A stretch of 64,000 nt of DNA from an uncultured bacterium (GTDB taxonomy: Bacteria > Patescibacteriota > Saccharimonadia > UBA4664). The notes under the pieces are model-generated. The model ran no database searches. It was not told where the DNA came from and worked only from the letters and a program-made list of their open reading frames with translations. The DNA is taken from contig CAVRET010000002.1 of NCBI GenBank assembly GCA_963720265.1, positions 1,006,069-1,070,068 on the forward strand. Direction: 5' to 3'. The position numbers and the translations under genes are program-made. Of the stretch, positions 32,245 to 64,000 are shown piece after piece (position 1 is the stretch's first letter; the number at the start of each line of letters is the position of its first letter).

Positions 32245-32250
32245 GGGGAA

Positions 32251-45389: not shown

Positions 45390-46199
45390 ATGTCAAAGCG
45401 TACCTTCTACTTGGTACCGCAACAATACCAATGGCTATCCCAGGCACTACCTGCGCCCGTAGCCAAGACCAAGCCGCCGGTGGCAAACGAAGAGCTACTC
45501 GGTGGTATTTTGTTTGTGCTCAAAACTGGCAGCCGGTGGCAGGATATCCCAACTACCATCTGTCCGCATGACCCCAGCACCTGCTGGCGCCGACTCAGCT
45601 TTTGGCGTGGCCGAGGAGCGCTGGTCGGGACTTGGCGTGAGGTTCTCGGACTGCTCGACCGGCAAGGCAAAGTCGACCTGTCACTCGGCGCGTTAGATGG
45701 TTCGCTCGTCCAGTCACCGGCTTTTAAGGATGGCACTGGTTACTCCGGCAAACACCACCGGACTGGCACCAATATTTCGCTTGTGACTGACAAACAAGGC
45801 TTGCCACTGGCCAACGTCCTGGCTAAAGGCAACCGTCATGACCCGACCAATGCCGAGGCCACTATCCGGAAGATTCGCGTGGGTGCTAAGCGGCGGGTTA
45901 AACAACTCAACGCCGACAAAGGGTACGACTCTCGTACCTTCCGGACTGCCTTACGTAAGCGCGGCATTAAGGCCAATATCCCTGAGCGCATATTCAAGAA
46001 GCGGCGCAAACGCGGCCGCAAGCCCAGTTACGACAAAGCAACGGCCAAATTCCGGGCCTTTGTCGAGCGCACTAATGCCTGGCTAAAATACTTCCGTAAG
46101 TTACGTTACCGGTGGGAACGAAAGAAAAGCATGTTTCAGGCCTTTGTTGATCTGGCCTGTCTGCTTATCTGTTTGCGGCGGGTTGGAGATATGCAATGA
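45390..46199 (+). mobile_element. IS5-family (DDE_Tnp_1) transposase gene
   Basis: 269 aa. GAGGAA SD upstream. Conserved IS5 blocks LDGS..., LVTDKQGLPL and NADKGYDS. Confidence 0.8.
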
Positions 46200-48263: not shown

Positions 48264-48572
48264 ATGCAGATACTTCCTGAATTTGAAGGCTTCATTTGGG
48301 ATTGGGCCGATCTTGAAAAGAACCTAATAAAGCATAAAGTTACCGCGCAGGAAGCCGAGGAACTGTTTGCGAATGAGCCGTTTGTCATTCGTCGCGATGA
48401 CCACCACTCGAACCAGCACGAAGTGCGTTTGCAAGCCCTGGGTAAAACCAAAGCTGGCCTGAAACTATTCACTGCCTTTACCATGAGGGATCATAAATTG
48501 AGGGTCATTTCTGTGAGAGATATGACTCCGAGAGAGGAGCAAGCTTATGCGAGAATTGAAAGAACTTCCTGA
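48264..48572 (+). CDS. brnT: BrnT (DUF497) toxin
   Basis: 102-aa ORF. FIWDWADLEKNLIKHKVTAQEAEELF. Confidence 0.8.
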   Translation: MQILPEFEGFIWDWADLEKNLIKHKVTAQEAEELFANEPFVIRRDDHHSNQHEVRLQALGKTKAGLKLFTAFTMRDHKLRVISVRDMTPREEQAYARIERTS

Positions 48573-48828
48573 ATTCAAAAGCCCTGAAGAAGAGTCTGAG
48601 TTTTGGTACACCCGTGACTCAACCGAGTATGTAGATTGGTCCAACGCCGAGAGAGCCGTCTTTCCGAACCTGAAATTCGCTACTGAATCCATTTCAATTC
48701 GCCTGCCTGCGCCGCTTTTAGCACGCATTAAAGAATTGGCAAATGAAAAAGACGTTCCGTACCAATCACTCATGAAGGTGTATCTTAGCGAGCAGGTCGA
48801 TAAGGAACTAGCTGCCAAGACCAAATGA
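48547..48828 (+). CDS. brnA: BrnA antitoxin (CopG/RHH-like)
   Basis: 93 aa. Overlaps brnT. ISIRLPAPLLARIKELANEKDVPYQSLMKVYLSE. Confidence 0.75.
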   Translation: MRELKELPEFKSPEEESEFWYTRDSTEYVDWSNAERAVFPNLKFATESISIRLPAPLLARIKELANEKDVPYQSLMKVYLSEQVDKELAAKTK

Positions 48829-48913: not shown

Positions 48914-49639
48914 ATGGCTCGAAAACAGGCCGCATCTTCGACCCGCAAGAATAGATCAAACAAAAAAAATGCCACAGTTCGTAGCCGCGCGTTGCCGTCC
49001 CGGCGGTTTTCGCTGTCATTGGTGGCAATATTCGCTGCCGTTTGTGTGGTGGTGGGTATTAAGTACACGTTTTACAGCCAGGCCGACGGTGGTTACTCTC
49101 AGATGTGCGACTACAACTATTCGGCCGTGCAGTGTTTTCACGTACCGAGCGGCAGTGGCATAAGCAAACCTGTTACCACCACGAGCATTAATAACGACAC
49201 GCTGAAAGAAGATTTTGAGCAGGAATCAATGTACCGCTGCAACGGCGGCGACCGCGTCACTTCGACCTGCCCATTTACGGTCGGATCCGGACTTAATAAC
49301 CGCTACCTTAATGACCTCATCGTTCAATACGCCTACGTCGGAGACGGATCAGGCGGGAAATACTGTCTAGGTGATGAATACAATGAGTCGACCATTGCTG
49401 GGCTCCAAGGCTGCAATAGCTACTATGGTACCGGCGGCGGACCGGGCACGATATTTGTAGTGAACATCGGCGGCGGTGGCGGCACGGCCGGCTTTGTGGA
49501 AAGCAACTATTGGTCGAATCAAAATTACAAAAACGGCTTCTACAACGACCCCGGCTGGTTGTGCGCCGAAAACGGCAACAATCTTGGCCTCAACGACAGC
49601 AACGGCAACGGCGACTTGTGCCAGTGGCACCAGCTCTAG
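48914..49639 (+). CDS. secreted Cys-containing hypothetical protein (basic N-tail, TM/signal)
   Basis: 241-aa ORF. Confidence 0.45.
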   Translation: MARKQAASSTRKNRSNKKNATVRSRALPSRRFSLSLVAIFAAVCVVVGIKYTFYSQADGGYSQMCDYNYSAVQCFHVPSGSGISKPVTTTSINNDTLKEDFEQESMYRCNGGDRVTSTCPFTVGSGLNNRYLNDLIVQYAYVGDGSGGKYCLGDEYNESTIAGLQGCNSYYGTGGGPGTIFVVNIGGGGGTAGFVESNYWSNQNYKNGFYNDPGWLCAENGNNLGLNDSNGNGDLCQWHQL

Positions 49640-49650
49640 CGGCTATTTTA

Positions 49651-50148
49651 CTAGCGCGTCACCCGGCCGCTCTCAGCATCAAGCGCCTGATCAAGCAGTT
49701 TCACCAGCCTGGCGTTGGCAGCGGTCAGCTGCTGCCGCGCCTGTACCAGGTCAGTTATATCAATATTGACTGACATCAGGCCATTGATGTTATCGGCATC
49801 GTCGTACGTTGGCTCAATGCTCAGGTCAAAGGTACGCGCTTTGTGGCCGTTCAGCGGCAGTGACACGGTTTCATGATAGGGCCGACCGGTTGCAAGGACC
49901 GTGCGCTTCACAGCGGTAAGTCGCTGCACTTCGGGCTGGTCGTGCACAATATCCTCAAGCCGTTTACCAAGGATATCCATGCCGAGATCCGGACTGGGAT
50001 TGGATACGTGAATATATTTGAGGTCGAGATCTTCCAGGGCGACACTCACACGCGGATGGGAGAACGTCTCCAGATTCTTGGCCGCCCGCGTCAACATCCG
50101 TTTAACTTCTCTCATCTCGCCTCCAATTGTCTTTATCAAGCATATCAC
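49651..50148 (-). CDS. stand-alone PAS-domain protein
   Basis: 165-aa ORF with a PAS-like core (...VALEDLDLKYIHVSNP...ILGKRLEDIV...). Confidence 0.45.
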   Translation of the reverse strand: MICLIKTIGGEMREVKRMLTRAAKNLETFSHPRVSVALEDLDLKYIHVSNPSPDLGMDILGKRLEDIVHDQPEVQRLTAVKRTVLATGRPYHETVSLPLNGHKARTFDLSIEPTYDDADNINGLMSVNIDITDLVQARQQLTAANARLVKLLDQALDAESGRVTR

Positions 50149-50553: not shown

Positions 50554-52494
50554 ATGAGCGCGCGCGTTGTGAGGGGCTTAACCCCTGTTGGAAAACCGCA
50601 TCCTGCCGCCAAGTGGAGTCTGCTCATGGCACTATTGGCGGTGGTTGTGCTTGGTGTACCGGGCATTGCTTCGGCCGGCCAGCCTACGGTGCATGCGCCC
50701 ACCGGCCCGGAGTCGGGCGGGGTTTTTACCGGACCCTACACCTTTGATACCTATATAAACTGCAGCGGCGGGGCCAGCTTTAACAGCTCCTACACCAACT
50801 CCCTTGACGGCACTCATGCATTTGCGTTTTATGGTGCGGCCGACGGTTCGCTACTTGTTACCATCGACGGCGGCGGACTGCTGCTCATTACTTCCTGCGG
50901 CAATCCGCTCACCGGCCCGATGACTAATGTGGCCGACTACACGGTCACGAAAGGCAACCCACCCAGCCCCACGCCGACGCCGTCAGCCACGCCCTCACCC
51001 ACGCCACGGCCCAGCGCCACACCGACGCCGCCGGCCGGATCGGGCAGCAGCAAGGGCAGTGGAAGCAATGGGGGAGGCAACGCCGCCGCGGCCTCTGGCG
51101 GCACGGCGGACACTCCAACGCCGCAGACGAATCCCGGCCAGCCGACCCCGGTTGCAACCACGCCGACCGCGGCCGGCACCCCGGTCCCAACCGGCGCGCA
51201 CAACAAAACGCCGGCGGTCCAGTTGCCCTTTAGGGTTTCAGGCCAGCCGGAAGGTAAGCAGTTCCCGCTCACCTTGGCCATGATCCTGCTTGGCCTGGCG
51301 TTACTCGGAATATTAATAGTTGTCCTGAGCCGCTCACGGCATGCCCGCGAACGACTCCACTCCGCGATCATGCCGCTAAAATTACGGTTCGAACCGCACT
51401 GGCTGCGCTTCCGTCATGCTGTTAGGACACACTTGCCCACGCCGCACGGCCTCAACGAACCGAAGAAAAAAGGCCTGAGCGCGCACCATCACTCCGGCCG
51501 CCTGCTTGCGCACCATCACACGTCGTATCCAGCGCTGGCCTTCTTACTCCTGGTCTCAGCCATACTGGCCGCTGCAGCTTCATATGCCACACAAGCTGAC
51601 AGCTCGGACAGCTCAGTGGTGTCGCTGACCGTTAATGGACCGCCGCCGTCAACCGCGCCCACAATTGACGACCCCACCACCGGCGACCACGTATCAACGA
51701 ATAGCATTACGGTCCGCGGTACCTGCCAAAGCGGGCTATTGGTTGAAGTTGACCGCAATACCGACTTTGCCGGCGATACCATGTGCGACGCGAGCGGCCT
51801 GTACTCCGTGCTCATCACCCTGGTGCCAAATGAGAACGACCTTGTGGCTCGCCACGCCGACGCGCTTGGGCAGTACGGGCCGGATTCAAATGTCGTGATC
51901 GTTTTCTACGACGTGCCCCCGCCCCCGCCGTCTCCATCGCCGTCGGCTTCACCAACCCCGCTCCCGTCCGGCTCATCCGGATCCAGCTCGGGTACTAAGC
52001 ACACTGCCCAAACCGCTACCCCCACGCCTGCACCCCCAGCCCAGCCCGCGCCGTTGCTTATCAGTGCCGGTAATCAGTTGTATCGCGGCGGCGAGGTCCA
52101 AGAAACTATCCAGTGGCCGGTCACCATCACCGGCGGCCGCGGACCCTACGTCGTCACCTGGGAATGGGGCGACGGCAGCGCAACCGATTCGCTCGTGGCG
52201 CCGGCCGCCGGCCCGGTACAAATGGCCCATGCGTACGCGAATCCCGGATCGTACCAGGTGACGATTCGGGCTACGGACGCCAGTGGTAACCAAGCCGTAC
52301 TGCAAGTCGTGACTGTTATTAATGGCACGGCGACAGCCGCCTCGGCCATCGGCAATTCCAAGCCGGATGCCGGTGTCTTGATAGCAATCTGGCCGACACT
52401 GAGCCTATGCGGCCTTCTCGTGCTTTGCTTCTGGTTGGGAGAACGACACAAGCAAGCTATCGTTGACAGGCTGCGCAATACCGGTTACGCTTGA
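50554..52494 (+). CDS. large surface protein: signal peptide, beta-rich domains separated by P/T/S linkers, C-terminal TM anchor
   Basis: 646 aa. PSPTPTPSATPSPTPRPSATPTPP linkers. C-terminal hydrophobic helix followed by a basic tail. Confidence 0.6.
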   Translation: MSARVVRGLTPVGKPHPAAKWSLLMALLAVVVLGVPGIASAGQPTVHAPTGPESGGVFTGPYTFDTYINCSGGASFNSSYTNSLDGTHAFAFYGAADGSLLVTIDGGGLLLITSCGNPLTGPMTNVADYTVTKGNPPSPTPTPSATPSPTPRPSATPTPPAGSGSSKGSGSNGGGNAAAASGGTADTPTPQTNPGQPTPVATTPTAAGTPVPTGAHNKTPAVQLPFRVSGQPEGKQFPLTLAMILLGLALLGILIVVLSRSRHARERLHSAIMPLKLRFEPHWLRFRHAVRTHLPTPHGLNEPKKKGLSAHHHSGRLLAHHHTSYPALAFLLLVSAILAAAASYATQADSSDSSVVSLTVNGPPPSTAPTIDDPTTGDHVSTNSITVRGTCQSGLLVEVDRNTDFAGDTMCDASGLYSVLITLVPNENDLVARHADALGQYGPDSNVVIVFYDVPPPPPSPSPSASPTPLPSGSSGSSSGTKHTAQTATPTPAPPAQPAPLLISAGNQLYRGGEVQETIQWPVTITGGRGPYVVTWEWGDGSATDSLVAPAAGPVQMAHAYANPGSYQVTIRATDASGNQAVLQVVTVINGTATAASAIGNSKPDAGVLIAIWPTLSLCGLLVLCFWLGERHKQAIVDRLRNTGYA

Positions 52495-53666
52495 TTCAGG
52501 CCTGTTGTAGGCTTAACACTAAATCAAACGTTCGAAGCAAAACCAAACAAACAAAAGTGCCAAGAATTTCAGGATCATACCAATCGTCCAAGCGCCCGTC
52601 ACGTCACCCCGTGCTCTACCGCCGGATCTGGCTTGTGGTAGCTTTTGTTGTTACGGTCATTGCTGCAACGAGTGCGCCTATACATGCCGCCACTTTGTCG
52701 ACCGCTTCAGTGGCAATGTCTGATCCCAGGCCCAATTCCACGGCTGTTAACTATACCGTCACCGCCTCGAGCGTATCGTCCATTGCGCTGCGCTGCATTG
52801 AGGAAACCTACGTCACCACCCCCGGCGGTGCAACGGCTGTGCCTGGCTTCAGCTCCGCTGCCGCCACCGTCAGCGCCGGCTCAACCTTACTGAACGGCTC
52901 GACCGGCACCTGGAATGTCACCGACACTGCCAACAGCATTAAGTACGCCAACACCACCAACGCCACCGCGCCCAGTACTACCACCGGCGCCACGTTTATT
53001 GCCCAAAACATTACCAACGGCAGCACCGGTAACACCAGCTACTGGATTACGTTCCAGACTTTCAGCGACTCGGCTTGCTCAGTACCGGTTGACAACGCCA
53101 CCGTCGGCTTCATCTACAATCAGGGCTCCACACTCTCGCTGACGGTTAACGACACGCTCAGCTTCACAGTCAACGCCGTAGCAGCCAGCCAAGCTTGTGA
53201 TGGCACTACCACCACGGGTGCATCGACTGCCACCACCATTCCGTTTGGCACGGTCACGAGTGCCGCCAATGCAATTGTCTGCCAAGACCTCACTGCCGCT
53301 ACCAACGCGACTAACGGCTACACCATTTACGCGCGCTACACTGCGAAACCCACCAACGCGCTGAACCAAACCATTGCCGACTGGACCGGCACTAATGCCG
53401 CGCCCACGCCGTTCGCGGCCGCCGGCACAGAAGCCTACGGCTACACCACCAACGATGCGACGCTCGGCACCGGCACGGTCAACCGCTTTACTAACCCAGT
53501 CCAAAACTGGGCCGCCATGACCACCAGTAACGCCGAAGTCGCCTATGAGCCTAACGGTGTCACCAGCACCACCTACCGCATCGGCCACCAGGTCGGCGTC
53601 TCGCTCACCACCCGGCCTGGTACCTACACCACGACCGTCATCTACACCTGCACACCGATTTATTAG
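52491..53666 (+). CDS. secreted paralog 1 of a three-member family (variable N-half, conserved C-terminal ~180-aa domain ending YTTTVIYTCTPIY); WxL-protein-like architecture
   Basis: 391 aa. Signal peptide. The C-half is ~85% identical to the 56271-57401 product, with synonymous DNA divergence. Confidence 0.65.
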   Translation: MIQACCRLNTKSNVRSKTKQTKVPRISGSYQSSKRPSRHPVLYRRIWLVVAFVVTVIAATSAPIHAATLSTASVAMSDPRPNSTAVNYTVTASSVSSIALRCIEETYVTTPGGATAVPGFSSAAATVSAGSTLLNGSTGTWNVTDTANSIKYANTTNATAPSTTTGATFIAQNITNGSTGNTSYWITFQTFSDSACSVPVDNATVGFIYNQGSTLSLTVNDTLSFTVNAVAASQACDGTTTTGASTATTIPFGTVTSAANAIVCQDLTAATNATNGYTIYARYTAKPTNALNQTIADWTGTNAAPTPFAAAGTEAYGYTTNDATLGTGTVNRFTNPVQNWAAMTTSNAEVAYEPNGVTSTTYRIGHQVGVSLTTRPGTYTTTVIYTCTPIY

Positions 53667-53767
53667 ATAAAAGTAATCTTTGGCTGCGGCTTTTACGCAC
53701 TGTCACGGTTGACTCTAAAAAACGTCCACGCTAACATTGCCTTGCTCATTTACACCAAGACAGGGAA

Positions 53768-54181
53768 GTGATAAACGTGGACAAACCGAGGTGGCGAGCC
53801 ATCCAAGTCGTCCTGTTTTGCGTATTCCTTCCGTTCTACCTCGGCGGCTGGATGCTGATAGCCTTCGAAATTGTGCTGATCCCTGAAACCTTTGGGCTCG
53901 TCAAACACGCCCATCATCTGTCCGCGACTTGGGCACTAATCTTGGCGGTCGTGTGTCTTTTGGTAACGGCGAACAGTTTTCGGTTTTGGAAAACCGGAAA
54001 CAGCAAGCTCCTGTTTGAAATCCTGTCAGACACCAGCGCCCCTGAGGACCAAGCGCTCAAAATGAGCGAGAGTGGCACCGAGCCGCTTCCACCTACCGGC
54101 CAAGACGTCCCCGGTTGGATAGTTGCAGTCGCACTCATACTCTTGGTGGGTCGAGCACTGTGGACAAATAGGTCACAGTGA
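53768..54181 (+). CDS. small membrane protein with a C-terminal LPXTG-type sorting signal (LPPTG-QDVPG-WIVAVALILLVG-R), CscD-like
   Basis: 137 aa located between paralogs 1 and 2. Confidence 0.45.
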   Translation: MINVDKPRWRAIQVVLFCVFLPFYLGGWMLIAFEIVLIPETFGLVKHAHHLSATWALILAVVCLLVTANSFRFWKTGNSKLLFEILSDTSAPEDQALKMSESGTEPLPPTGQDVPGWIVAVALILLVGRALWTNRSQ

Positions 54182-54311
54182 CCGTTCAATATCGCTAGCG
54201 GGGTCACAACGACGATGGTTCCGCTACACCGAGCGCCGCGCGAAAAATCCGCGGCGTTTGATTGCAAACATAAGCACAATCCGCTACACTCCAATCAACT
54301 CTTGATGGAGT

Positions 54312-55436
54312 TTGTCATTGCAGCGCCTAATTCGCGCCGCCCGGGTTTTGGGTATTTCGTTACCTACACACCCGCGCCGGCCGCTACAATATTTTTTGAT
54401 CGTAATCCTGGGGCTCATGCTGTTGCCGGCCGCCCCAGTCGCGGCGGCAACGCTAAACACCGCCTCGGTTGCTCTATCTGACCCGCAGCCTGCCGCCACT
54501 GGTGTAACGTATGATTTCACCGGCTCCGGCGTTACATCCACGGCTATTAATTGTGTGCAGGTGACTATTGCAACTACTGCCACCGGCACCACCGCGCCCA
54601 GCGGTTTTGACGGCAGTAGCGCCAGCGTTTCGGCCGGGCAATCATCGCTCATTAACTCCAGCGGCGCAGGCTGGGGTCTCGTTGTTTCCGGCTCGGGCAA
54701 CAACGTTTTCAGCTACACCAATTCGTCCGGTGTCACGCCAAGTACGCTATCCGGCGCCACCTTCGTGCTTGCCAATATTACCAATTCTAATACTGCCGAC
54801 ACCGGCTACTTCTTTCAGCTCAACACCTACGCTAATACCAATTGCACGAGCTCGCCGGTCGACAATGTGGTCACGCAATTCATTAACACCAACGGCTCGA
54901 CCCTCTCGCTCACCGTTACGCCCACACTTAGCTTTACCGTGAACGGCATAAGTTCCAGCGCCAGCTGCGACGGCACCACCACCACCGGTACGTCCACTGC
55001 CACCACGATTCCGTTCGGCACGGTCACAAGTGCTGCCAATGCCGTGGTTTGCCAGGACCTGCAAGCCGCTACCAATGCCACGAATGGCTACACGATATAT
55101 TTACGCGACACCGGCCAGCCCACGAGCGGCAGCAATACTATCGCCAACGCTCCGGGCTCCAATGCCTCACCGGCCGCTTTTCCGTCGGCCGGCACCGAGG
55201 CCTATGGCTACACCACCAACGATCAAACTCTGGGCACCGGTACTCCAAACCGCTTCTATAATGGCTCGACCTACAAGTGGGCGGCTGCCACCACATCAGA
55301 CGAGGAGGTTGCCTACGAGTCCGCCGGCGTGGCCACCACCGATTACGACATTGCCCACCAAGTTGGCATTGCCTCAACAACTTTCTCGGGCACCTACACC
55401 ACGACCATTATTTACACCTGCACGCCGGTGTATTAA
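54312..55436 (+). CDS. secreted paralog 2 (same family as paralog 1)
   Basis: 374 aa. Same conserved Cys pair (CDGTTTTG...VCQD) and C-terminal ...TYTTTIIYTCTPVY. N-terminal extended-signal motif RLIRAARVLGI. Confidence 0.65.
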   Translation: MSLQRLIRAARVLGISLPTHPRRPLQYFLIVILGLMLLPAAPVAAATLNTASVALSDPQPAATGVTYDFTGSGVTSTAINCVQVTIATTATGTTAPSGFDGSSASVSAGQSSLINSSGAGWGLVVSGSGNNVFSYTNSSGVTPSTLSGATFVLANITNSNTADTGYFFQLNTYANTNCTSSPVDNVVTQFINTNGSTLSLTVTPTLSFTVNGISSSASCDGTTTTGTSTATTIPFGTVTSAANAVVCQDLQAATNATNGYTIYLRDTGQPTSGSNTIANAPGSNASPAAFPSAGTEAYGYTTNDQTLGTGTPNRFYNGSTYKWAAATTSDEEVAYESAGVATTDYDIAHQVGIASTTFSGTYTTTIIYTCTPVY

Positions 55437-55495
55437 CCTCTTACAATAGTTCTTCACATCCGAGCGCAAGTTGCGCCGACCGAAATGGAGCCGCC

Positions 55496-56095
55496 ATGGA
55501 CGATCCGGTACTGGACGATTTGGCAGTCAATCTGCTGGCGGCTATGCCGCCGGCACCGGGAATGCTGCTTGGAAAAATTTGGTCTGACCACACCGCGCAG
55601 CACGGCGTCCCATCACCCGAGACGTCCGAAGCCCAAGTCACCCCTGCTATGAGCCTCCTGCGGGCGGGCCTGGTTACGGTCAACGGTGCAGGTCCGCTAT
55701 GGGCCGTGACCGAAGCCGGTGGGCTTTTCTGCCTGGTTCTCAGCCGACCGTGGGTCGCGGTGCGCAGCCTCGAGCCGCAGCCACTGAGCAAAAAGCGGAA
55801 AGCCATCCATAGATGGATCGGGGTGATTGACCGACTCGTCGCAAACGGCAGCCAACTCATACTCACTATTAGGTGGGTGCTCAAGAACGATCAGCCCGCG
55901 CCCGACGTCATCGAAGAGATACGTGTAGTTGAGCTGACTCAGCGCAAGGTTTCCGCGGTCGCAGGCGACGACCACGCAATGAATCTGCCGCTGGGCGCAA
56001 CCGGCAACGATTTTGAAGTATCCGCGCCGGGAGGCGAGGTCGCCGCTCTGCTGACCGAAGCCGGCTTTGACCTCAGGTCGGCCGGCGCTAGATGA
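55496..56095 (+). CDS. hypothetical cytoplasmic protein embedded in the surface-protein locus. Start corrected to ATG 55496 with GGAG SD; the track ORF starts at 55277 inside paralog 2.
   Basis: ~200 aa with no TM. Confidence 0.4.
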   Translation: MDDPVLDDLAVNLLAAMPPAPGMLLGKIWSDHTAQHGVPSPETSEAQVTPAMSLLRAGLVTVNGAGPLWAVTEAGGLFCLVLSRPWVAVRSLEPQPLSKKRKAIHRWIGVIDRLVANGSQLILTIRWVLKNDQPAPDVIEEIRVVELTQRKVSAVAGDDHAMNLPLGATGNDFEVSAPGGEVAALLTEAGFDLRSAGAR

Positions 56096-56270
56096 AGGCG
56101 AGCACGCATGCGTTCGCAATGGCGGCCGGGACAAGCGAAACCCGGCCGCCTGGGGCCGGGGATTATCCCCCGGTTCCAAACCTGGAATTATTACTCACAT
56201 AGGTGTTGTAAAAACTGCTTGACGCCGGTTTATATAGCGGTTACGCTTAAAAAGACCTCATTAAAAAGTT

Positions 56271-57401
56271 GTGGAGAGAAGAGTGAAGAGAATTAGCCGT
56301 GCGGCTGAAGCCCTTGGGGTACCAACAGCCAGACAGTTCCGGGGGACGCTAGCGAAAATCCTAGCGTTTGTGCTTGCGTTTGTAAGTATTGGTTTGGCGC
56401 CTGGCCTGGCCAGTGCTGCGACGCTAAATACTGCTTCGGTCGCGCTCAGCGACCCGACGCCTAGTCAAACCGGTGTAAGTTACACCTTCACTGGCTCTGG
56501 TGTCACAACCAGCACGCCTATTAAATGCATTACCGTCCAATTCACCACCACTGCCGGTGGTTCAACCCTGCCCGGCAGCATGGGGATTACGGCTACCTCG
56601 CTCGATGCGTCGAGTAACTTTGTTCCGACCCCGAGCGGATTTGGCTCAGCCTCAAACCCCAACGGTTACACCGTGCAGTTCACCGACAGCTCCGGTGAGA
56701 CTCCGGCATCGAGCTCGGCCAGAACTTTGGAGCTTGACGGCATCACCAACGGCAGTACCGGTAACGTCGGCTACTACGAAACTGTATCCACGTTTTCAGA
56801 CACCGGCTGTTCCACCCCGATCGACAACGCTATGGTCCAGTTCATCTATAACCAGGGCTCGACCCTCTCGCTGACAGTCAACAATACACTGAGCTTCTCG
56901 GTCAATGCCGTGGCGGCTAGCCAAGGTTGCGATGGAACCACGACCACCCAAGCGTCCACAGCGACCACCATCCCGTTCGGCACCGTGACAGCCGCCGCCA
57001 ACGGTGTCGTCTGCCAGGATCTCACCGCTGCGAGCAATGCCACGAATGGATATACGATTTACACTCGTTACACCGCGCCACCAACTAACGCCCTGAACCA
57101 AACTATCCTACCTTGGACCGGCACCAACACAACGCCAACCACCTTCTCGGCACCCGGCACCGAGGCCTATGGCTACTCAACCAATGACGCAACGCTTGGC
57201 ACCGGCACCGCCAACCGGTTCGACAACAGCGGTAACTTCTACTGGGCCGCAGAAACCACCTCCAATGCTGAAGTTGCGTACGAGCCAAACGGCGTCACGA
57301 GCACCACATACCGCATCGGTCACCAGGTAGGCATCTCTCTCACCACGCACCCGGGCACCTACACGACGACCGTGATCTACACTTGCACCCCGATCTACTA
57401 A
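56271..57401 (+). CDS. secreted paralog 3
   Basis: 376 aa. N-terminal motif RVKRISRAAEALGV. C-terminus identical to paralog 1 (YTTTVIYTCTPIY). Confidence 0.65.
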   Translation: MERRVKRISRAAEALGVPTARQFRGTLAKILAFVLAFVSIGLAPGLASAATLNTASVALSDPTPSQTGVSYTFTGSGVTTSTPIKCITVQFTTTAGGSTLPGSMGITATSLDASSNFVPTPSGFGSASNPNGYTVQFTDSSGETPASSSARTLELDGITNGSTGNVGYYETVSTFSDTGCSTPIDNAMVQFIYNQGSTLSLTVNNTLSFSVNAVAASQGCDGTTTTQASTATTIPFGTVTAAANGVVCQDLTAASNATNGYTIYTRYTAPPTNALNQTILPWTGTNTTPTTFSAPGTEAYGYSTNDATLGTGTANRFDNSGNFYWAAETTSNAEVAYEPNGVTSTTYRIGHQVGISLTTHPGTYTTTVIYTCTPIY

Positions 57402-57422
57402 TCCGGTAAGCTAAACTACATC

Positions 57423-58397
57423 ATGATACGCGCAGCCATTTACCGCCGCTTGCCCCTCGTCGCAGGCGGCGTAATGGTGCTTACAAGCCTCCTGGTACCA
57501 ATGTTCGCCGCCGCTGCCAATACAGCCCAAGCTCCATCGAGCAGTGCCGCCACTCAAGGTTTCCAAATCTCGCCGCCCATCACCACGCTCAATATGAACC
57601 GCGGTACCAGCACCCAGGGCAACATGAAGGTGACGAACCTCACTGCCGGGACCCTCACGCTGGCGGTCTCCAAGGAGAATTTCGTTGCCCAAGGTGAAGA
57701 GGGCCAGGTCGCTCTTACCGACAACGCCGATCCACTTTATTCCTTGGCGCCGTACTTCACGCTTAGTACGAGCCAAGTAACGGTCGCACCAACCGCCACC
57801 GCCCAGGTAAACTACACCATTAGTGTGCCGCTCAACGCCGAGCCCGGCGGCCGCTACGGCTCGATCACGTTTACGTCTATCCCGGCGGCTCTGCCCAGCG
57901 GCCAGTCCGGCGCGGCCGTACGCCAACAATTGGCTGGGCTCATATTGCTGCGCATCAACGGCCCCACCCACGAGCAATTATCGATCGCCACATTCAAGAC
58001 CGACAAATCGTTTTACGAATACGGGCCGGTTACCTTTACCACCCGCGTGCAAAACGAGGGCAATGTGCACGAAAAGCCGTCAGGCCAAATCGTGGTAAAA
58101 AACATCCTTGGCGTGACCACTGACAAACTCGCCCTTGAGCAGCAATATGTGCTGCCCGGTGCGGTCCGTCGCCTCACCACCAAGCTTAACCGCCACTTCA
58201 TGTTTGGTCCCTATACCGCCACACTCACGCTGCACAATGGCACGATTCAAACCATCACCGCCAAGGCCAGCTTTACCGTCCTGCCCTACAAGCTGATCAT
58301 CCTGGTGGTGATCATTCTGCTCATCCTATTCCTGATCTTCTGGAAAGGCCGCCACCGCCTGGGCCGCGCCTTCAGGATCTTAAGCGGCCGCGAATAG
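57423..58397 (+). CDS. DUF916/CscA-like bitopic surface protein (signal peptide, ~270-aa ectodomain, C-terminal TM, short basic tail)
   Basis: Architecture and locus context only. Its ectodomain is homologous to the N-domain of 59759-61393. Confidence 0.5.
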   Translation: MIRAAIYRRLPLVAGGVMVLTSLLVPMFAAAANTAQAPSSSAATQGFQISPPITTLNMNRGTSTQGNMKVTNLTAGTLTLAVSKENFVAQGEEGQVALTDNADPLYSLAPYFTLSTSQVTVAPTATAQVNYTISVPLNAEPGGRYGSITFTSIPAALPSGQSGAAVRQQLAGLILLRINGPTHEQLSIATFKTDKSFYEYGPVTFTTRVQNEGNVHEKPSGQIVVKNILGVTTDKLALEQQYVLPGAVRRLTTKLNRHFMFGPYTATLTLHNGTIQTITAKASFTVLPYKLIILVVIILLILFLIFWKGRHRLGRAFRILSGRE

Positions 58398-58415
58398 CCT
58401 GCTATAATTACGCTA

Positions 58416-59762
58416 ATGGTTGTGAGTATACGTCAGCTCGGGTTGGCTTTGGCCGTTGTCGTGGTATTGTTGCCGTCGGCTGCGGCCGCTGATTTACTCC
58501 AAAGTACCCACTATCGTCTTGACCCCGATGTGGCCGATAATTTCGGCGGCACCGGCAGCTCGACTGATTATGGCCTCACCGATGCCGGCGGCGAGGCGGT
58601 CGTGAGCGCCGGCGCAAGCCAAAGCTACATGCTTTCCCAAGGTTACGTAGCATCGCTGCCGCAAAGCATTTCGCTCACGGTCCTACCCTCCGGCACCGAG
58701 GCCTATTATCCGCTCGACACCGGCACCGGCGACCGGGCCTACGACATGAGTGCCAATTCCAACGATGGCGCACTTACCGGTAACCCCAGCTGGATCACCG
58801 GCCAGGTCGGCGACGCACTGAGTTTTAACGGTTCCAGCCAGTACGTCACCATCCCCGATAACTCCAGTCTCGACCAAACCGGCGATCTTACCATCGAAGC
58901 TTGGGTTAATCTCGCAAATTACACCAACACCAACGAAATCGTAGCCAAAACCGTAGGCTCCGGCAGCACCAATACCACATACGACTTGCGTACCCAAGCC
59001 GGCACCGGCGATCTGCAATTTCTTGGCTATGATTCGGCACTACGCACGGTCACCTCCACCGTACCGGTCGGCACCGGCGGCTGGCACCAGGTGGCCGTTA
59101 CCAAAACCGGCGGCACCGCTACGCTCTACATCGACGGCCTAGTGGAAGGACAGGGGAGCGTCGGCACCACCACCACCAATACCAGTAATCTAAAACTCGG
59201 TGCTCGCGACGACCTTAATGCCTCGAACTTCTTAAACGGCGACATTGACGAAGTGCGGATCTACGACCGAGCGCTGTCAGCAGCCGAAATCTCAGGCGAT
59301 TATGCCGCAGGCGTTGCCGGCCTCGAGTTCGCGCAAACCATGCCGAACGTCAACCCCGGTACGTCGTCCACCTATGGCACCGACTGCGTCGTGCGGACCG
59401 ACGCCGGTGGCTACGACCTCTACATTCAAGAGCCCAATTTGCTTACCCACACTGACGGCCACACCACCATTCCGGCCATCTCATCAACCATTGCCTCTCC
59501 CGCAGCCTGGGTGCAAGGCACCACTCAAGGCTTTGGCTTCACGGTCGTAAACGGCACCCAAGTTGAAGCCAAATGGGGAACCAACCCGAATTACGACTAT
59601 GCTGCAGTACCCGCAACCTCCACCGATTTCCACTCTCGTGACGGCTTCACCGGCGGCACGCCCGAAACCACCAGTCTGCAGTTCCGGGCCGATACCTCCA
59701 CCAGCCAAAAATCCGGCACCTACTCAGCCACTATCATCTACACGGCGACGCTCAAACCGTGA
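58416..59762 (+). CDS. secreted LamG (concanavalin-A-like lectin/glucanase) domain protein with a family-type C-terminal domain
   Basis: 448 aa. ...LKLGARDDLNASNFLNGDIDEVRIYDRALSAAEI is a LamG_3 signature. C-terminus ...SGTYSATIIYTATLKP resembles the paralog family. Confidence 0.65.
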   Translation: MVVSIRQLGLALAVVVVLLPSAAAADLLQSTHYRLDPDVADNFGGTGSSTDYGLTDAGGEAVVSAGASQSYMLSQGYVASLPQSISLTVLPSGTEAYYPLDTGTGDRAYDMSANSNDGALTGNPSWITGQVGDALSFNGSSQYVTIPDNSSLDQTGDLTIEAWVNLANYTNTNEIVAKTVGSGSTNTTYDLRTQAGTGDLQFLGYDSALRTVTSTVPVGTGGWHQVAVTKTGGTATLYIDGLVEGQGSVGTTTTNTSNLKLGARDDLNASNFLNGDIDEVRIYDRALSAAEISGDYAAGVAGLEFAQTMPNVNPGTSSTYGTDCVVRTDAGGYDLYIQEPNLLTHTDGHTTIPAISSTIASPAAWVQGTTQGFGFTVVNGTQVEAKWGTNPNYDYAAVPATSTDFHSRDGFTGGTPETTSLQFRADTSTSQKSGTYSATIIYTATLKP

Positions 59763-61393
59763 CCACGCGGCATGTGCTCATGGGTCTCGGCATTACGGCC
59801 GGCTTAGGGCTAAGTCTGGCCGTTGCTCCTGCCGCCAGGGCCAGCACACCCGGCTTGCAGGTTAACCCGCTTGAGTACCAGAGCACACTCAAAGGCACTG
59901 ACATCGAAAGCGGCTTCATCGACGTCGCCAATCCCGGCGACACCAGCATCAACGTGGTCTCAAACGTTGAAGGGTTCCGCCAGGCTGACCTCGCCGGCGA
60001 TCTCGCCTTCTTTAATAGCACCCCGCTAAATCAGGGCATCGTGGTTGGCTTGCCGCAATTTAGCCTCGGCCCTCGTCAGGCCATACGCGTCAGCTTTTCC
60101 GTTGACCCTAGTCGGCTGCCCAAGGGCGGCGTCTATGCCGTGATTTTCTTCCGCACCGTACCACCGAACCAATCCAGCTCCAGCTCATTCATTGCCGAAT
60201 CGGCCAATGTCGGCACGCTGCTGTTGCTCCAAAACGGGCCGGCCCAAAAAACCGGCCGCATCAAACAGCTGAATCTTGGCTTTTGGCAGCTCGGGAGTGG
60301 CATTTCAGGCTCCGGTGAGTACGGGAACACCGGCGGAGATACAGCAGCGGCCGTGAAACCCGTTATTACCAGCCACGTTTGGCCGTGGGGCCGCGCCACC
60401 CGTTTCACCGGGCCCTTGGTATTGCCGGGATCCACGCGCGCGTTTAGCTTCAGTCGGCCAGGCTCGTACGCAGGTCTCTTGCCCGTCACCCTCATTGACC
60501 CCACCACCGGCGCCGCTACCACGCGCTGGGTCGTCGCCTGCACCGGCGGGTACGCCTTTGCCCTGCTTATCGCTGTAATCCTCGCACTGTTCTGGCTCGT
60601 CTACCACCTCACGCGCCGGGCCAAAACCGGCACCACCGCTGCAAAGCCCGTGGTGGGGTTCGCAGTCGGGCACGTCTACAAGCAAGCCTTGCGCCGCCAA
60701 AAGGCGCTTGGTTACCGCCTCAGTCTCAAAGACAGCCCGCCCGGCTGGATCGACACGCTCATGCTAGCTGACATGACGAAAACCTTCCGGGCTGCTAGCC
60801 TGCCGGTCTCAGGCCTCAACTACTTTACACTCGGCTCAGTCGAATATGGCCACTCCGCCCGCTTCAACCCCGACAACCCGCACTATCAGGCCTGGCTCGG
60901 CGGTTACCTTGTGCATTTTGACCAAAAACCAGATTGGACCCCGCAAGACTACTTCAAATTGCCCGAGGCCGACCAAATCAAATGGCTGCACCACTTTGGG
61001 GACCCCAACCCGGTCATGCAATTCGAGCACATTGGCGACCCTGAGCTCATCAAAAATGGCGACTTTACCGGCCGCCTGCACCTCTGGACCGGCACCACGC
61101 ATGCTGATATCGGCCCGGGCAACCGTAGCTTCCACACCCGCACCTACATGGAGGGCATGGCGCACGTCATGAACCAAACCCACCCCGGCCTCGGGCTCAA
61201 AGGCAAGAATTTCATCCCCGGCCCCAGCGATGCAGCCTATGAGCCGCTTAAGCTGGCCGGCTACCTGGCCATTTTCGAGCTCGAGCCAAACCTCGCCGCC
61301 GTCCTCTACGTCTGCGGCACCGGCGAGTTAGTGAAAAACTTGCGTGCGCTGGAGCAGTTGCTCAAAGACCACTTGGTGCTGGAAAAGAACTAG
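59759..61393 (+). CDS. bitopic protein: DUF916-like ectodomain, TM, and a ~260-aa cytoplasmic domain of unknown function
   Basis: 544 aa. TM AFALLIAVILALFWLVYHLTRR in mid-protein. Its start overlaps the previous gene. Confidence 0.55.
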   Translation: MTTRHVLMGLGITAGLGLSLAVAPAARASTPGLQVNPLEYQSTLKGTDIESGFIDVANPGDTSINVVSNVEGFRQADLAGDLAFFNSTPLNQGIVVGLPQFSLGPRQAIRVSFSVDPSRLPKGGVYAVIFFRTVPPNQSSSSSFIAESANVGTLLLLQNGPAQKTGRIKQLNLGFWQLGSGISGSGEYGNTGGDTAAAVKPVITSHVWPWGRATRFTGPLVLPGSTRAFSFSRPGSYAGLLPVTLIDPTTGAATTRWVVACTGGYAFALLIAVILALFWLVYHLTRRAKTGTTAAKPVVGFAVGHVYKQALRRQKALGYRLSLKDSPPGWIDTLMLADMTKTFRAASLPVSGLNYFTLGSVEYGHSARFNPDNPHYQAWLGGYLVHFDQKPDWTPQDYFKLPEADQIKWLHHFGDPNPVMQFEHIGDPELIKNGDFTGRLHLWTGTTHADIGPGNRSFHTRTYMEGMAHVMNQTHPGLGLKGKNFIPGPSDAAYEPLKLAGYLAIFELEPNLAAVLYVCGTGELVKNLRALEQLLKDHLVLEKN

Positions 61394-61489: not shown

Positions 61490-64000
61490 ATGGGGCTAGG
61501 CCGCAAGCTTCGAGTTCAAGGCATTGTACTCGTAGCCGCCGGTCTCCAAATCCTAACAGCCCTCTTTGCCGTCTCGATTTTAGTGACGCCCACCGCCACC
61601 TCGGCGGTCAACCAAACCATCCCCTATCTCATCAATTTCCAGGGCCGCCTCACCGACAACAACGGCAACGTCCTGCCCGACGGCAGCTACAACATCAAGT
61701 TCCGCATTTTCAACGCCTCAACCGGTGGCACCAACGAATGGGAAGCCGACCGCGTCTACGGCACCTCGGACCACCGCGTCACAGTTGAAAATGGCCTCTT
61801 CAACATCCAATTCGGCGACACCTCGCAAGGGGACCCAACACTTTCGCCGAGCCTGTTTTCCGGCACCTACCCGCTCTACCTCGAGGTAGAGCTACCTACC
61901 CCAGCCTCCGCCACCTGCGCTTCAAACGGCTGCGCGGTCTGGACCGAAGGCGCCATGACTCCGCGCCAATCACTCGCAAGCAGTCCCTATGCTTTCAACG
62001 CCGACACCCTCGACGGCATTGATTCCACCGCCTTTGGCCAACTTTCCACCGCCAATTCCTGGACCGCCGCCAACTCATTTACGCCCAGCTCCGGCGTTGC
62101 CATCACACTTACCCCGGCCGCCTCCACCGACTCACTCGACGTCAAAAACTCCAGCGGTGCCACCCAAGCCTACTTCGATTCGAACGGCATCCTAAACGTC
62201 GGCCAAACCATCCAAGACACAACTACCACGGTCGACCTTGGCACCTCGGCCAACCCGTTCCGCAGCGGCTACTTTGGCACCAGCGTCCAAACCCCGGCCT
62301 TAAATGCCACGTCTTCCGGTGGCACCATCACCACCAATGCCGGCACCATCCAAAACTCGACCTCATCCACCGGCATGACCATCGACCTCAAGAGCTCGTC
62401 CAACACCACGCTCACCGTCACCAACTCCGGCACCGGCACGGCCGGAGTCAGCGTCGAAGGCGGCCTCACCATTGGCACCGGCCAAACCTACGATGTTGGC
62501 TCCAGTACGGGCGAAGGAGTCACCTGCTCGTCCGGCCAAATCCTTAACGCTATCGCCGTCACCGGCGGCGTGGTTACAAGCGGTTCCTGCGTTGCTGCCG
62601 GCGGCGGCGATCAAATGATAGGCGAGTGGAGTTCCGCAACGGCAGGTGCAACTACGAATCAACTAACCACGGTCCAGTTTACTGGCGCAGCCAATTCCAC
62701 TCCAAGCTTCAGCAACAGCCTGCACACCCTCACACTTCCATCCAACGCTTCTCGGATTGTGGTCGAAACCAAAGGGGCGGGCGGCGGTGGCGGTAGCACA
62801 GGCAGTGCCACGGCTTACTTGGGCGGCGGCGGCGGCGGCGAGGGTGGCTACTCCAAAGTCTCAATTACCAACAGCCTGGCTACAAACTACTACTTCAACA
62901 TCGGTGCGAGCGGTTCCGGCGGCGCTGGTAGTCTCGCGGCCGGCCAAAACGGTTCGCCCGGCGGCAATACTTGTTTCGGGACGAACTCATCTAATGCCTG
63001 CACCACCCCGAGCGCCGAAGCCCTCGGTGGTTCCGGTGGCGCCCTTTCTGACACTGCCGGTGCCAAGGCTGGTGGCGCGGGCGGCACTACATCCGGTGCG
63101 TCCGGCGATGTCACCACTGGTGGAGCTCCCGGCTGCAACTCTACTGGCGTGGCCAACGCCGCCCAAAGTGGTTGTGGCGGCGGTCAAGGTGGAGGCGTTG
63201 GGATTGCTTCAGTAACAGCCGTCGGCAACAATGGCGTAAACGGCGGTGGTGGTAGTGGAGCCATGGGTGAAGATGTTGCAACCACGGAGAAGGCGGGCGG
63301 CGCGGGCGGCGCCGGCTATGTTACCGTCACCGTCTACGTAACGGTTGCCGGCACCGGCAACCCGGCCACGCTACAGTCGTCGTACAGTAACGACACGGGC
63401 TCCGACGACATTACGCTCAGCTCCAGTCACCCTCTCATTGTGCGCGATAATTCCACGCCACTCGGCACGAACCTGTTCGAAGTCCAAGACAACGCTGGTG
63501 CCAACAACTACTTTGCGGTCTCAAGCTCCGGCATCTCCACCAACGGCACGGCTACGGCCGCCACCGTTAATGCCACCTCGGGCTATCAAGCCAACGGCAC
63601 GGCCGGCACCGGTGTAGCCTGCGGCGCCGGCACGGTCAACGAAGCCGCGACTTACACCGAAGGCTTACTCACTACGGCCGGCACCTGCACCGCCGTGCAA
63701 GCCGCGGGTAATTACATCGTGCAAGCGCCGGTTGGTACGGCCAACACTATTACCGCGGCCAGTGGCGCGCAAGACCTCGTATTAAAGGGTACCAACGGCA
63801 CCGGAACCGACCTGCTCGACATCTACAACACGGCTGTTTCCCCCGTGCTTACCAGTTACTTCGATAACAACGGTGCGTTCCACACGACTACTGCCATTTC
63901 AGCTCCGACATCAACGAACACCATTAATAGCCTCATTATTAATGGTGGTGCGGTGTCCGGCGTCACCGGCTACACGCAAGGCTCCGGCAGCTTCAGCGAC
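61490..64000 (+). CDS. giant secreted Gly/Thr/Ser/Ala/Asn-rich surface protein, 5' part (837 aa in window; continues beyond 64000); not in the supplied ORF track
   Basis: Frame 2 is open from ATG 61490 to the window end; I checked it codon by codon across the whole span. N-terminal TM/signal GIVLVAAGLQILTALFAVSILVTP. Long GGxG / TxT tracts suggest a beta-helix or fibre. Confidence 0.6.
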   Translation, partial: MGLGRKLRVQGIVLVAAGLQILTALFAVSILVTPTATSAVNQTIPYLINFQGRLTDNNGNVLPDGSYNIKFRIFNASTGGTNEWEADRVYGTSDHRVTVENGLFNIQFGDTSQGDPTLSPSLFSGTYPLYLEVELPTPASATCASNGCAVWTEGAMTPRQSLASSPYAFNADTLDGIDSTAFGQLSTANSWTAANSFTPSSGVAITLTPAASTDSLDVKNSSGATQAYFDSNGILNVGQTIQDTTTTVDLGTSANPFRSGYFGTSVQTPALNATSSGGTITTNAGTIQNSTSSTGMTIDLKSSSNTTLTVTNSGTGTAGVSVEGGLTIGTGQTYDVGSSTGEGVTCSSGQILNAIAVTGGVVTSGSCVAAGGGDQMIGEWSSATAGATTNQLTTVQFTGAANSTPSFSNSLHTLTLPSNASRIVVETKGAGGGGGSTGSATAYLGGGGGGEGGYSKVSITNSLATNYYFNIGASGSGGAGSLAAGQNGSPGGNTCFGTNSSNACTTPSAEALGGSGGALSDTAGAKAGGAGGTTSGASGDVTTGGAPGCNSTGVANAAQSGCGGGQGGGVGIASVTAVGNNGVNGGGGSGAMGEDVATTEKAGGAGGAGYVTVTVYVTVAGTGNPATLQSSYSNDTGSDDITLSSSHPLIVRDNSTPLGTNLFEVQDNAGANNYFAVSSSGISTNGTATAATVNATSGYQANGTAGTGVACGAGTVNEAATYTEGLLTTAGTCTAVQAAGNYIVQAPVGTANTITAASGAQDLVLKGTNGTGTDLLDIYNTAVSPVLTSYFDNNGAFHTTTAISAPTSTNTINSLIINGGAVSGVTGYTQGSGSFSD

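Follow-up and report, generated by a model that had tools for sequence, protein, structure and literature searches.

The window, a stretch of DNA of 64,000 nucleotides, contains between positions 50554 and 61393 nine open reading frames (ORFs) that are all co-directional on the plus strand (Table 1), so that the multi-gene surface-protein locus described in an earlier, sequence-only note is confirmed. All named homologs of the encoded proteins come from Saccharimonadia, Saccharibacteria or Patescibacteria metagenome-assembled genomes (MAGs), which places the locus outside Firmicutes, as had also been noted, and the host appears to belong to the CPR/Patescibacteria. A monoderm-type VirB4 is encoded in the window, where no rRNA or tRNA genes were found.

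Table 1. Features of the probable Pam-type pilus locus and its immediate flanks, in window coordinates.
Feature	Coordinates	Strand	Description
PAS-domain protein	49651..50148	-	Upstream of the operon; PAS_4, E 1e-5
G1	50554..52494	+	646 aa (gene caller start 50626); PamR-like membrane anchor, multi-TM, PKD, extra N-terminal module
G2	52491..53666	+	Pilin paralog 1; ORF 391 aa, gene caller 316 aa from 52716
G3	53768..54181	+	137-aa ORF; tail LPPTG, hydrophobic stretch, R
G4	54312..55436	+	Pilin paralog 2; 374 aa, gene caller 339 aa from 54417
199-aa ORF	55496..56095	+	Between G4 and G5; lacks a signal peptide
G5	56271..57401	+	Pilin paralog 3; 376 aa
G6	57423..58397	+	324 aa; membrane-anchored two-Ig-domain chaperone, PamC/PamD-like, distant WxLIP/DUF916-DUF3324 homolog
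G7	58416..59762	+	448 aa; subunit with LamG (concanavalin-like lectin) domain, ending in a divergent Pam-type domain
G8	59759..61393	+	544 aa; second chaperone paralog (aa 1 to ~295 including TM) fused to a ~250-aa cytoplasmic domain
Giant secreted protein, 5' part	61490..64000	+	>2392 aa; gene call on the same contig

The gene order, namely anchor, three pilins, chaperone, LamG subunit, chaperone and giant protein, is retained in three related MAG loci (L004, L005 and L006). In each of these, an equivalent of the giant protein, from >2000 to 3341 aa in length, is encoded directly downstream of the operon; the continuation of the giant protein beyond the window contains a CBM_4_9 match (E 4e-20), and this protein may be associated with the pilus system. 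PAS_4 domain genes are recurrent neighbors, being located upstream of the operon in L004 and L006 as well. The 199-aa ORF, which was absent from the earlier note, is predicted by the gene caller on the identical contig but has no Pfam match and no counterpart in L004-L006.

The other small ORF, G3, carries the sole LPXTG-type tail in the window and had been described as a small LPXTG protein. The tail is indeed present, but the N-terminus looks less like a signal peptide than like a pair of TM helices, the ORF is not called by the gene caller on the identical contig, and no counterpart was detected by tblastn in L004-L006. Its GC3 of 0.63 is compatible with coding. G3 is not a conserved component of the system, and it is doubtful that it is a real gene, unless it is a lineage-specific one. 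A sortase-dependent pilus of the Gram-positive type, or a wall-anchored adhesin locus, for which G3 or other LPXTG proteins would serve as substrates, is accordingly highly improbable: the pilins, which end in YTCTPIY, as well as G7 and G1 lack an LPXTG signal, no ORF in the window contains the TLxTC sortase motif, and the structural matches are generic Ig-like folds with high rmsd.

The three paralogous secreted proteins G2, G4 and G5 share 54-61% pairwise identity (59% between G2 and G5), with more variable N-terminal halves and a nearly identical final portion of ~180 aa, the C-terminal domain (CTD). Across 51 family members, two cysteines in the C-domain (C220/C248) and two in the N-domain (C86/C180) are invariant, as is a fifth, C372, which bears out the previously reported organization with a conserved cysteine pair in the C-terminal domain. 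Each protein consists of an N-terminal beta-sandwich, a conserved linker (STLSLTV) and a C-terminal Pam-type domain. The latter is identified by the NCBIfam model NF058581 (CPR_Pam_pilin_C), which aligns end to end (model positions 3-148 of 148; aa 230-374 of G4) with all three paralogs (G2, E 1.6e-4; G4, E 1e-7; G5, E 4e-6) and matches 38 of the 51 pilin family members as well as 70 out of a diverse set of 100 C-domain representatives (best E 2.3e-11). Homologs of G5 are numerous (n=447), the named ones originating from Saccharimonadia/Patescibacteria, and among the matches listed, comprising 1402 representative proteins of 74-3282 aa, the C-domain invariably occupies the C-terminus. In the AF2 model of G5 (pLDDT 80.6), two beta domains (approximately aa 55-192 and 207-374) are connected by a linker (aa 197-203, GSTLSLT) that is modeled with low confidence and unpaired; this segment is presumed to be the donor strand. 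Sequence searches of a PDB copy that holds no Pam structure, with G5, G6 and the family profiles, yielded no matches.

G1 matches the NCBIfam model NF058578 (CPR_pilus_PamR) with E 1.2e-69 over 278 of 297 model positions (aa 329-637 of the protein, 13-290 of the model) and additionally contains PKD_4 and PKD matches. As read from the sequence, the N-terminal part would comprise a signal peptide, a ~100-aa domain, a P/T-rich linker, a TM segment, a basic cytoplasmic loop and a second signal-anchor, followed by a donor-strand-like segment (SSVVSLTVNG), an Ig-like domain, a P-rich linker, the PKD domain and a C-terminal TM helix. The large TM-anchored surface protein of the earlier note does exist, in the form of this multi-TM PKD protein, which is a homolog of PamR, the RbmA-like anchor with an N-terminal strand and a C-terminal TM helix. 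The orthologs in L004 and L005 consist of 614 aa and 651 aa, respectively, and L006 has a 320-aa gene of PamR size. All the NCBIfam Pam scores fall below the curated cut-offs (234 versus 300 bits for G1, and 22-32 versus 55 bits for the pilins), so these proteins are homologous to the Pam components but belong to a divergent subfamily and are not equivalogs.

The LamG-lectin protein G7 (Laminin_G_3, E 4e-31) had been said to share the C-terminal family domain, and its final ~120-150 aa are indeed a divergent copy of the pilin C-domain: an HMM built from pilins only, with G7 left out, matches G7 with E 1.4e-4 and its L004 ortholog with E 7.8e-5, and hhalign gives E 3.9e-4 over 108 columns. Orthologs of G7 are located in the same position in L002, L004, L005 and L006, and the LamG domain is preceded by a QSISLTVLP strand. 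G7 is probably an adhesive or tip subunit. The CTD-only tip pilin, PamT, has no representative in the window, where the C-domain HMM finds only G2, G4, G5 and G7; a CTD-only gene is present in L005 (15382-16062, minus strand). G7 also shows a match to TafC (E 2e-12), a component of haloarchaeal Tat-fimbriae, which might point to a convergent donor-strand fiber of the TasA, archaeal bundling pilus or tafi type, unrelated to Pam. We assign this scenario a very small probability: the TafC match is confined to the LamG part, no TasA/camelysin or SipW-type matches were found, and the specific Pam models match G1 and the pilins.

Each of the two chaperones, G6 and G8, has a signal peptide followed by two beta-sandwich domains and then a TM helix (AF2 model), the layout of the PapD/FimC-like chaperones PamC and PamD and also that of WxLIP, in which DUF916 (PGBD) and DUF3324 (HBD) are followed by a C-terminal TM helix. 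The proposal that these bitopic proteins are DUF916-like holds: PF06030 (DUF916) matches 31 of the 42 chaperone family members, and in the hhalign comparison the G6 family is similar to WxLIP across both domains (96.5%, E 7e-10). The similarity of G8 alone to WxLIP is not significant, and G8 is tied to WxLIP not directly but through the match of its N-terminal 300 aa to the G6 family (hhalign, 96.8%, E 2.6e-10). By these profile comparisons, G6 and G8 qualify as true distant homologs of WxLIP. The NQIDKxxxYFDLK motif at the start of the PGBD, found in 67 of the 67 retrieved WxLIP ORFs, which had been selected by that very motif, is missing from G6, G8 and the family consensus. The G8 orthologs in L005, L006 and L002 are ~300 aa long, and among the orthologs the cytoplasmic fusion is found only in L004; the cytoplasmic domain has 14 stand-alone homologs of ~250 aa without Pfam matches, the one that is named coming from a Patescibacteria MAG. 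A search of genome contigs with G6 recovered two distant loci only. The link between the Pam chaperones and WxLIP is robust and apparently unreported, none having been found in the literature searched. A classical chaperone-usher pilus was also considered and rejected: there is no usher-like match among the locus proteins, and the chaperones are TM-anchored.

The kinship of the chaperones brings up the interpretation given in the earlier note, a divergent or new csc/WxL complex in which DUF916/DUF3324 proteins would hold C-domain proteins non-covalently at the wall. On that view the lectin and adhesin domains on display would bind polysaccharides, and no filament would be formed. Besides the homology of G6 and G8 with WxLIP, several observations are in line with this interpretation. 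The C-terminal family domain is found on small and on very large secreted proteins encoded beside a membrane-anchored two-Ig protein, like the WxL domain (PMC9772566); AF2 predicts insertion of a DUF916 strand into WxL (PMC10599100); a WxL-WxLIP complex has been solved (PDB 9i25); and when the Pam C-domain HMM was run against 1192 ORFs from Firmicute WxL loci, the top 60 of 60 were WxL ORFs, with scores above the reversed and shuffled controls and alignments that are mostly collinear, albeit weak, placing the W-x-L strands on G-Y-T-I-Y and I-Y-T-C-T. However, none of the 51 pilin family members matches Pfam WxL (PF13731) even at E<=1, the WxL HMM gives no significant match in the loci from CPR bacteria, and the solved WxL chain (9i25_A) is absent from the top structural matches. 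The Pam C-domain was compared with small and large WxL domains by hhalign, using local, global and low-mact settings and also an alignment of greater diversity (Neff 4.3); P was 0.03-0.14, with 0.14, 0.031 and 0.05 among the values, and no setting gave a significant result. We therefore refrain from classing the C-domain as WxL; by sequence it is not demonstrably a WxL domain. The reported absence of W-x-L motifs from the C-domain is correct, but the W-A-A said to stand in their place is not their positional counterpart, its tryptophan falling, in the weak alignments, on the GMGTW region of small WxL proteins. Likewise, the gene content mirrors csc clusters in the combination of family domain and two-Ig protein, but the LPXTG gene is not conserved and the gene order differs. 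Given, in addition, the lack of the WxLIP signature motif and of a sortase motif in the window, and the fact that closer relatives of these proteins, the Pam pilins, form filaments in cryo-EM, a csc/WxL complex is an improbable explanation, although the two explanations would not fully exclude each other should Pam pili and WxL clusters have a common origin.

The better label, in view of the NCBIfam PamR match of G1 (E 1e-69), is that of a Pam pilus operon. The Pam pilus has been described in Candidatus Mycosynbacter amalyticus and other CPR bacteria by Troman et al., with pilins that were seen as filaments by cryo-EM (bioRxiv 10.64898/2026.03.03.709456). The parts list includes pilins of two domains, in which cysteines are paired and the linker is conserved, two PapD/FimC-like chaperones that each have a TM helix at the C-terminus, the RbmA-like, TM-anchored PamR and the single-domain tip pilin PamT, which consists of the C-domain only, without the linker; an ATP synthase neighborhood of the operon is reported (bioRxiv 10.64898/2026.03.03.709456). 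The homology of G1 with PamR and of the pilin C-domain with the Pam pilins, the chaperone fold, the gene order and the CPR origin were computed in the present analysis. The locus, known here from its genes via the NCBIfam models, is likely a Pam-type pilus operon of Saccharimonadia (CPR/Patescibacteria), that is, one more member of an already described family and not a csc/WxL cluster.

By analogy with the Pam pilus, all components would be exported by Sec. The membrane-anchored PapD-like/WxLIP-like chaperones G6 and G8 would donate a strand into the open C-domain of the ~37-kDa pilins G2, G4 and G5, an incomplete Ig-like domain preceded by the N-terminal beta-sandwich and the linker strand, and would thus hold the pilins on the external side of the membrane. 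The pilins could then polymerize by donor-strand exchange without an usher; we infer this exchange from homology and from the unpaired, conserved linker. G7, with the same acceptor domain, would join the fiber as a carbohydrate-binding adhesive subunit, probably a distal one, and the N-terminal strand of G1 itself (VVSLTVNG) would enter the last pilin, with the C-terminal TM helix anchoring the fiber, which presumably functions in host contact. The PAS-domain protein is a possible regulator of the operon.

The Pam family is already represented in the 2026 preprint and in NCBIfam, and is abundant in Saccharimonadia metagenomes (the 1402 representative C-domain proteins among the matches listed), so the value of the locus is comparative: it places the Pam assembly chaperones in the DUF916/DUF3324 (WxLIP, CscA) family. 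This placement bears on the origin of the CPR pilus and on the role of the WxL clusters of lactobacilli, enterococci and Listeria, whose manner of attachment to the surface has been uncertain since 2006. It is conceivable, although we consider it somewhat less probable than the opposite, that the CPR Pam pili and the Firmicute Csc/WxL systems are two branches of one ancient monoderm usher-less system of chaperones and strand complementation. The WxL domain may then correspond to the Pam pilin C-domain, with the W-x-L strands equivalent to G-Y-T-x-Y and I-Y-T-x-x-P, and WxLIP may correspond to PamC/D. The chaperone half of this proposition is well supported; the subunit half is suggested by weak collinear sequence signals and the common architecture. 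If the common origin is real, WxL proteins would be held, and perhaps polymerized, by donor-strand complementation and not by direct peptidoglycan binding alone, and should the subunit domains be related as well, the Pam model derived from cryo-EM would supply a direct hypothesis for WxL proteins that can be put to the test. The LamG subunit, the PamR fusion and the chaperone with a cytoplasmic domain are variants worth recording.

Among the known systems, the Pam operon of M. amalyticus and other CPR bacteria has the following in common with the locus: the host belongs to the CPR; the pilins are Sec-exported, occur as several two-domain paralogs and have paired cysteines as well as a conserved linker; two PapD-like chaperones are anchored in the membrane; the PamR-like protein combines an N-terminal strand with a TM anchor; and the genes form a single co-directional operon adjoined by a large fiber-like protein. 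It differs in that a LamG-CTD subunit takes the place of the CTD-only tip pilin, the PamR homolog carries an additional extracellular module at its N-terminus together with two further TM segments, one chaperone (G8) is fused to a 250-aa cytoplasmic domain, and two non-conserved small ORFs are inserted. With the Csc/WxL clusters of Lactobacillales, Listeria and Enterococcus (Siezen 2006, PMC1534035; Hassan & Williamson, PMC9772566, PMC10599100), it shares a membrane-anchored protein of the DUF916+DUF3324 type, several paralogous small proteins encoded beside this two-Ig protein, a family domain invariably placed at the C-terminus of secreted proteins, both small and very large, and the prediction that the two-Ig protein inserts a strand into its partner domain. 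In contrast, the order in the canonical loci (L007-L064) is large WxL, LPXTG, small WxLs and WxLIP, the locus analyzed here encodes two chaperone paralogs instead of one and comes from a different phylum, and WxL proteins are thought to be wall-bound rather than filamentous. Unlike the classical chaperone-usher pili (Pap/Fim, CFA/I and Csu), to which no sequence similarity was detected, this system has no outer membrane and no usher, its chaperones are TM-anchored, and its pilins have an extra N-terminal domain. The haloarchaeal Tat-fimbriae (TafA/C/E) and TasA-like systems are similar in being usher-less strand-donation fibers of monoderms with a LamG-bearing minor subunit (the TafC-like match on G7), but the similarity is restricted to the LamG domain, and the system described here is distinguished by Sec rather than Tat export and by its dedicated chaperones.

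On the best-supported reading, the locus most likely encodes an usher-less, Sec-dependent pilus of the Pam type whose assembly is helped by chaperones. In the ORF scan of the window, every long ORF of the locus lies on the plus strand. The three predicted pilins (G2, G4 and G5) are paralogs with 54-61% pairwise identity, and their final ~180 residues, the C-domain, are near-invariant in the alignment. Five cysteines are invariant across all 51 family members: C86 and C180 in the N-domain, C220 and C248 in the C-domain, and C372 in the terminal YTCTP motif. The last of these, which has equivalents in G2 and G4, lacks an obvious intramolecular partner and could be either free or involved in an inter-subunit disulfide. 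In the AF2 model of the G5-type pilin, two beta domains are bridged by a low-confidence but strongly conserved GSTLSLT segment, as would be expected of a donor strand left unpaired in such a model. Similar S-L-T-V-like strands can be read in the sequences after the second signal anchor of the anchor protein G1 and before the LamG domain of G7, and are putative strand donors as well. At E<=1e-3, the Pam-type C-domain was detected in 1402 representatives, always as the C-terminal part. The carriers among those listed range from domain-only size to 3282 aa, with as much as ~3100 aa in front of the domain, and some also match models of M23 peptidoglycan endopeptidases, NHL/beta-propellers or LamG; these fusions suggest pilus-displayed enzymes and adhesins.

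G7 contains a strong Laminin_G_3 domain followed by a divergent copy of the C-domain. This copy is recognized by a pilin-only HMM built without G7 (E 1.4e-4), which also matches G7 orthologs, and by hhalign (E 3.9e-4 across 108 columns). The two predicted chaperones, G6 and G8, are paralogous (hhalign 96.8%, E 2.6e-10); in each, a signal peptide is followed by a pair of beta-sandwich domains and a TM helix (AF2 pLDDT 87). The C-terminal 247 aa of G8 form a ~250-aa cytoplasmic domain fused behind the TM helix. This domain had no match in the Pfam search; its 14 homologs are all stand-alone proteins of ~250 aa, and the single named match belongs to a Patescibacteria MAG. Only one of the related MAG loci (L004) shares the fusion, and the orthologs in L002, L005 and L006 end at ~300 aa. 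G1 is a multi-TM protein of 646 aa with a PKD domain. In its N-terminal 320 aa, an extra secreted module is joined through a P/T-rich linker to a TM helix, and a basic loop on the cytoplasmic side leads to the second signal anchor. The module had no match in the Pfam search; L005 and L006 retain its first ~133 aa upstream of the operon.

The surface-protein anatomy described in the earlier note (co-directional paralogs, a LamG protein, two bitopic proteins and a TM anchor) is thus real, with the exception of the small LPXTG protein. The latter (G3) has the sole LPPTG tail within the window and an N-terminus resembling two TM helices; it is left uncalled on the identical contig L003 and has no counterpart in the related loci L004-L006. 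Nor is the extra 199-aa ORF that separates G4 from G5 conserved.

The 'Pam pilus system' models of NCBIfam (June 2026) match the key proteins below the curated cut-offs: CPR_pilus_PamR aligns with residues 329-637 of G1 (E 1.2e-69), and CPR_Pam_pilin_C spans the whole C-domain in G2, G4 and G5 (E 1e-7 to 1.6e-4) and matches 38 of the 51 pilin relatives and 70 of 100 diverse representatives. The models go back to a 2026 preprint. In Ca. Mycosynbacter amalyticus, as reported there, filaments studied by cryo-EM are built of the two-domain pilins PamA and PamB, which assemble by donor-strand exchange via a conserved linker; PamC and PamD are a pair of PapD/FimC-like chaperones with C-terminal TM helices, PamR is an RbmA-like, TM-anchored protein proposed to be the fibre terminator and anchor, and PamT is a CTD-only tip pilin (10.64898/2026.03.03.709456). 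By analogy, G6 and G8 would cap the subunits and deliver them at the membrane, donor-strand exchange would polymerise G2, G4 and G5, G7 would supply a lectin-type adhesive subunit, and G1 would anchor the fibre.

The earlier note had proposed a divergent csc/WxL-type locus, with W-A-A replacing W-x-L, and the likeness holds for the chaperones. The Pfam family PF06030 (DUF916, now WxLIP_PGBD) weakly matches G6 and is detected in 31 of 42 family members (best E 4.9e-9). Bona fide WxL clusters (68 loci) were gathered by a metagenome scan for the WxLIP motif NQxDKxxxYFDLK, and the canonical order in the loci so retrieved is large WxL, LPXTG, small WxLs, WxLIP. The alignment of the G6 family with 13 WxLIPs by hhalign covers both Ig domains (96.5%, E 7e-10, 217 columns). 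Together with the PF06030 matches, it makes the Pam-type chaperones distant members of the WxLIP family. A DUF916 strand is predicted to insert into the WxL domain (PMC10599100), and structures are available of an E. faecium WxLIP, both by itself and bound to a WxL domain protein (PDB 9i25, 9i1y; the complex is 9i25). The Pam preprint mentions neither WxL nor DUF916 (10.64898/2026.03.03.709456), and our literature search found no paper on WxL and donor-strand systems together, or on DUF916 in Saccharibacteria.

The WxL, LPXTG and W-A-A arguments, in contrast, are not supported, and the C-domain is not demonstrated to be a WxL variant. Pfam WxL matches no member of the pilin family even at E<=1, a WxL HMM found nothing significant in the CPR loci, and hhalign gives P 0.14 against small WxL domains (0.031 with a diverse C-domain alignment) and 0.05 against large ones. 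Weak signals nevertheless favour a relationship. Among 1192 ORFs of Firmicute loci (160 of them WxL), all 60 of the best 60 matches to the Pam C-domain HMM are WxL ORFs, with low scores (maximum 10.8 bits versus 2.7 for reversed and 5.8 for shuffled). The alignments are mostly collinear, placing NGYTVY against the first of the W-x-L strands and GTYSTTVIYTAVP against the terminal YTATLTWxLxDxP, and the constant C-terminal position is common to both domains. The two domains may perhaps be homologous, which we offer as a tentative hypothesis, not as a finding.

Coordinates of the locus, its neighbours and genes in related loci
Feature	Location	Strand	Remarks
Surface-protein locus, G1-G8	window 50554-61393	plus	
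G1 N-terminal 320 aa	window 50554-51513		
C372 of G5	window 57386-57388		
G8 C-terminal 247 aa	window 60650-61393		
Giant secreted protein, >2392 aa	window 61490-64000 and L003 11420-17331		directly after operon; Gly/Ser/Thr-rich stretches, CBM_4_9 domains
Small PAS_4 protein	window 49651-50148	minus	upstream of operon
241-aa Cys-, Gly-, Asn-rich ORF	window 48914-49639		between toxin-antitoxin pair and PAS gene
BrnT toxin (E 8e-19), CopG-type BrnA antitoxin (E 7e-30)	window 48264-48828		just upstream of locus
IS4/5-family transposase	window 45390-46199		
IS1595-family transposase	window 37142-37975		
T4SS segment	window 29782-33990		
Ricin-B lectin protein	window 26208-27059		
Third chaperone-like gene and CTD-only gene	L005 14481-16062	minus	
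711-aa ORF	L001 4947-7082		

The gene order of anchor, three pilins, chaperone, LamG subunit, chaperone and giant protein is kept in L004, L005 and L006. The giant CBM-bearing protein, which may be the 'tail fibre-like protein' of the preprint's neighbourhood (10.64898/2026.03.03.709456), and the PAS gene, with PAS_4 genes also preceding the corresponding operons of L004 and L006, are recurrent operon neighbours. The 241-aa ORF starts with a TM or signal segment; the Pfam search gave no match for it. L005 has two further genes that the window lacks, one for a third chaperone-like protein (24% identity with G6) and one for a PamT-like, CTD-only protein of 213 aa. L001, from a distant low-GC MAG, has one ORF of 711 aa whose N-terminal half is chaperone-like and carries a TM helix; joined to it are a second segment resembling a signal peptide and a C-domain of the pilin type (HMM E 7e-26). 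This ORF adjoins a G6-like chaperone and genes that, on ORF inspection, are PilM/N/O-like.

G5 and G6 have hundreds of homologs each, and all organism-named matches come from MAGs assigned to Candidatus Saccharimonadia, Saccharibacteria or Patescibacteria. Proteins with 100% identity lie on a contig of 1,108,292 bp. The T4SS segment of the window is of the monoderm type, with a pilin-like conjugal protein and a CD1110-family VirB4 (E 1e-101). No tRNA or rRNA was found in the window. In 2-kb steps, those covering 22-24 kb and 40-42 kb have a lower GC content. The host is a CPR bacterium with ~55-60% GC, and the earlier placement outside the low-GC Firmicutes is correct.

Altogether, the interpretation in the earlier note finds partial support: the likeness to csc/WxL clusters is genuine and, in the case of the chaperone, due to homology. 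The locus should be classified with the Pam pili and not with the csc/WxL systems. Its parts list matches that of the Pam system, PamT excepted. It differs from that system in that the model scores are sub-threshold, the PamR-like G1 is fused to an additional N-terminal module, and the chaperone G8 is fused to a 250-aa cytoplasmic domain.
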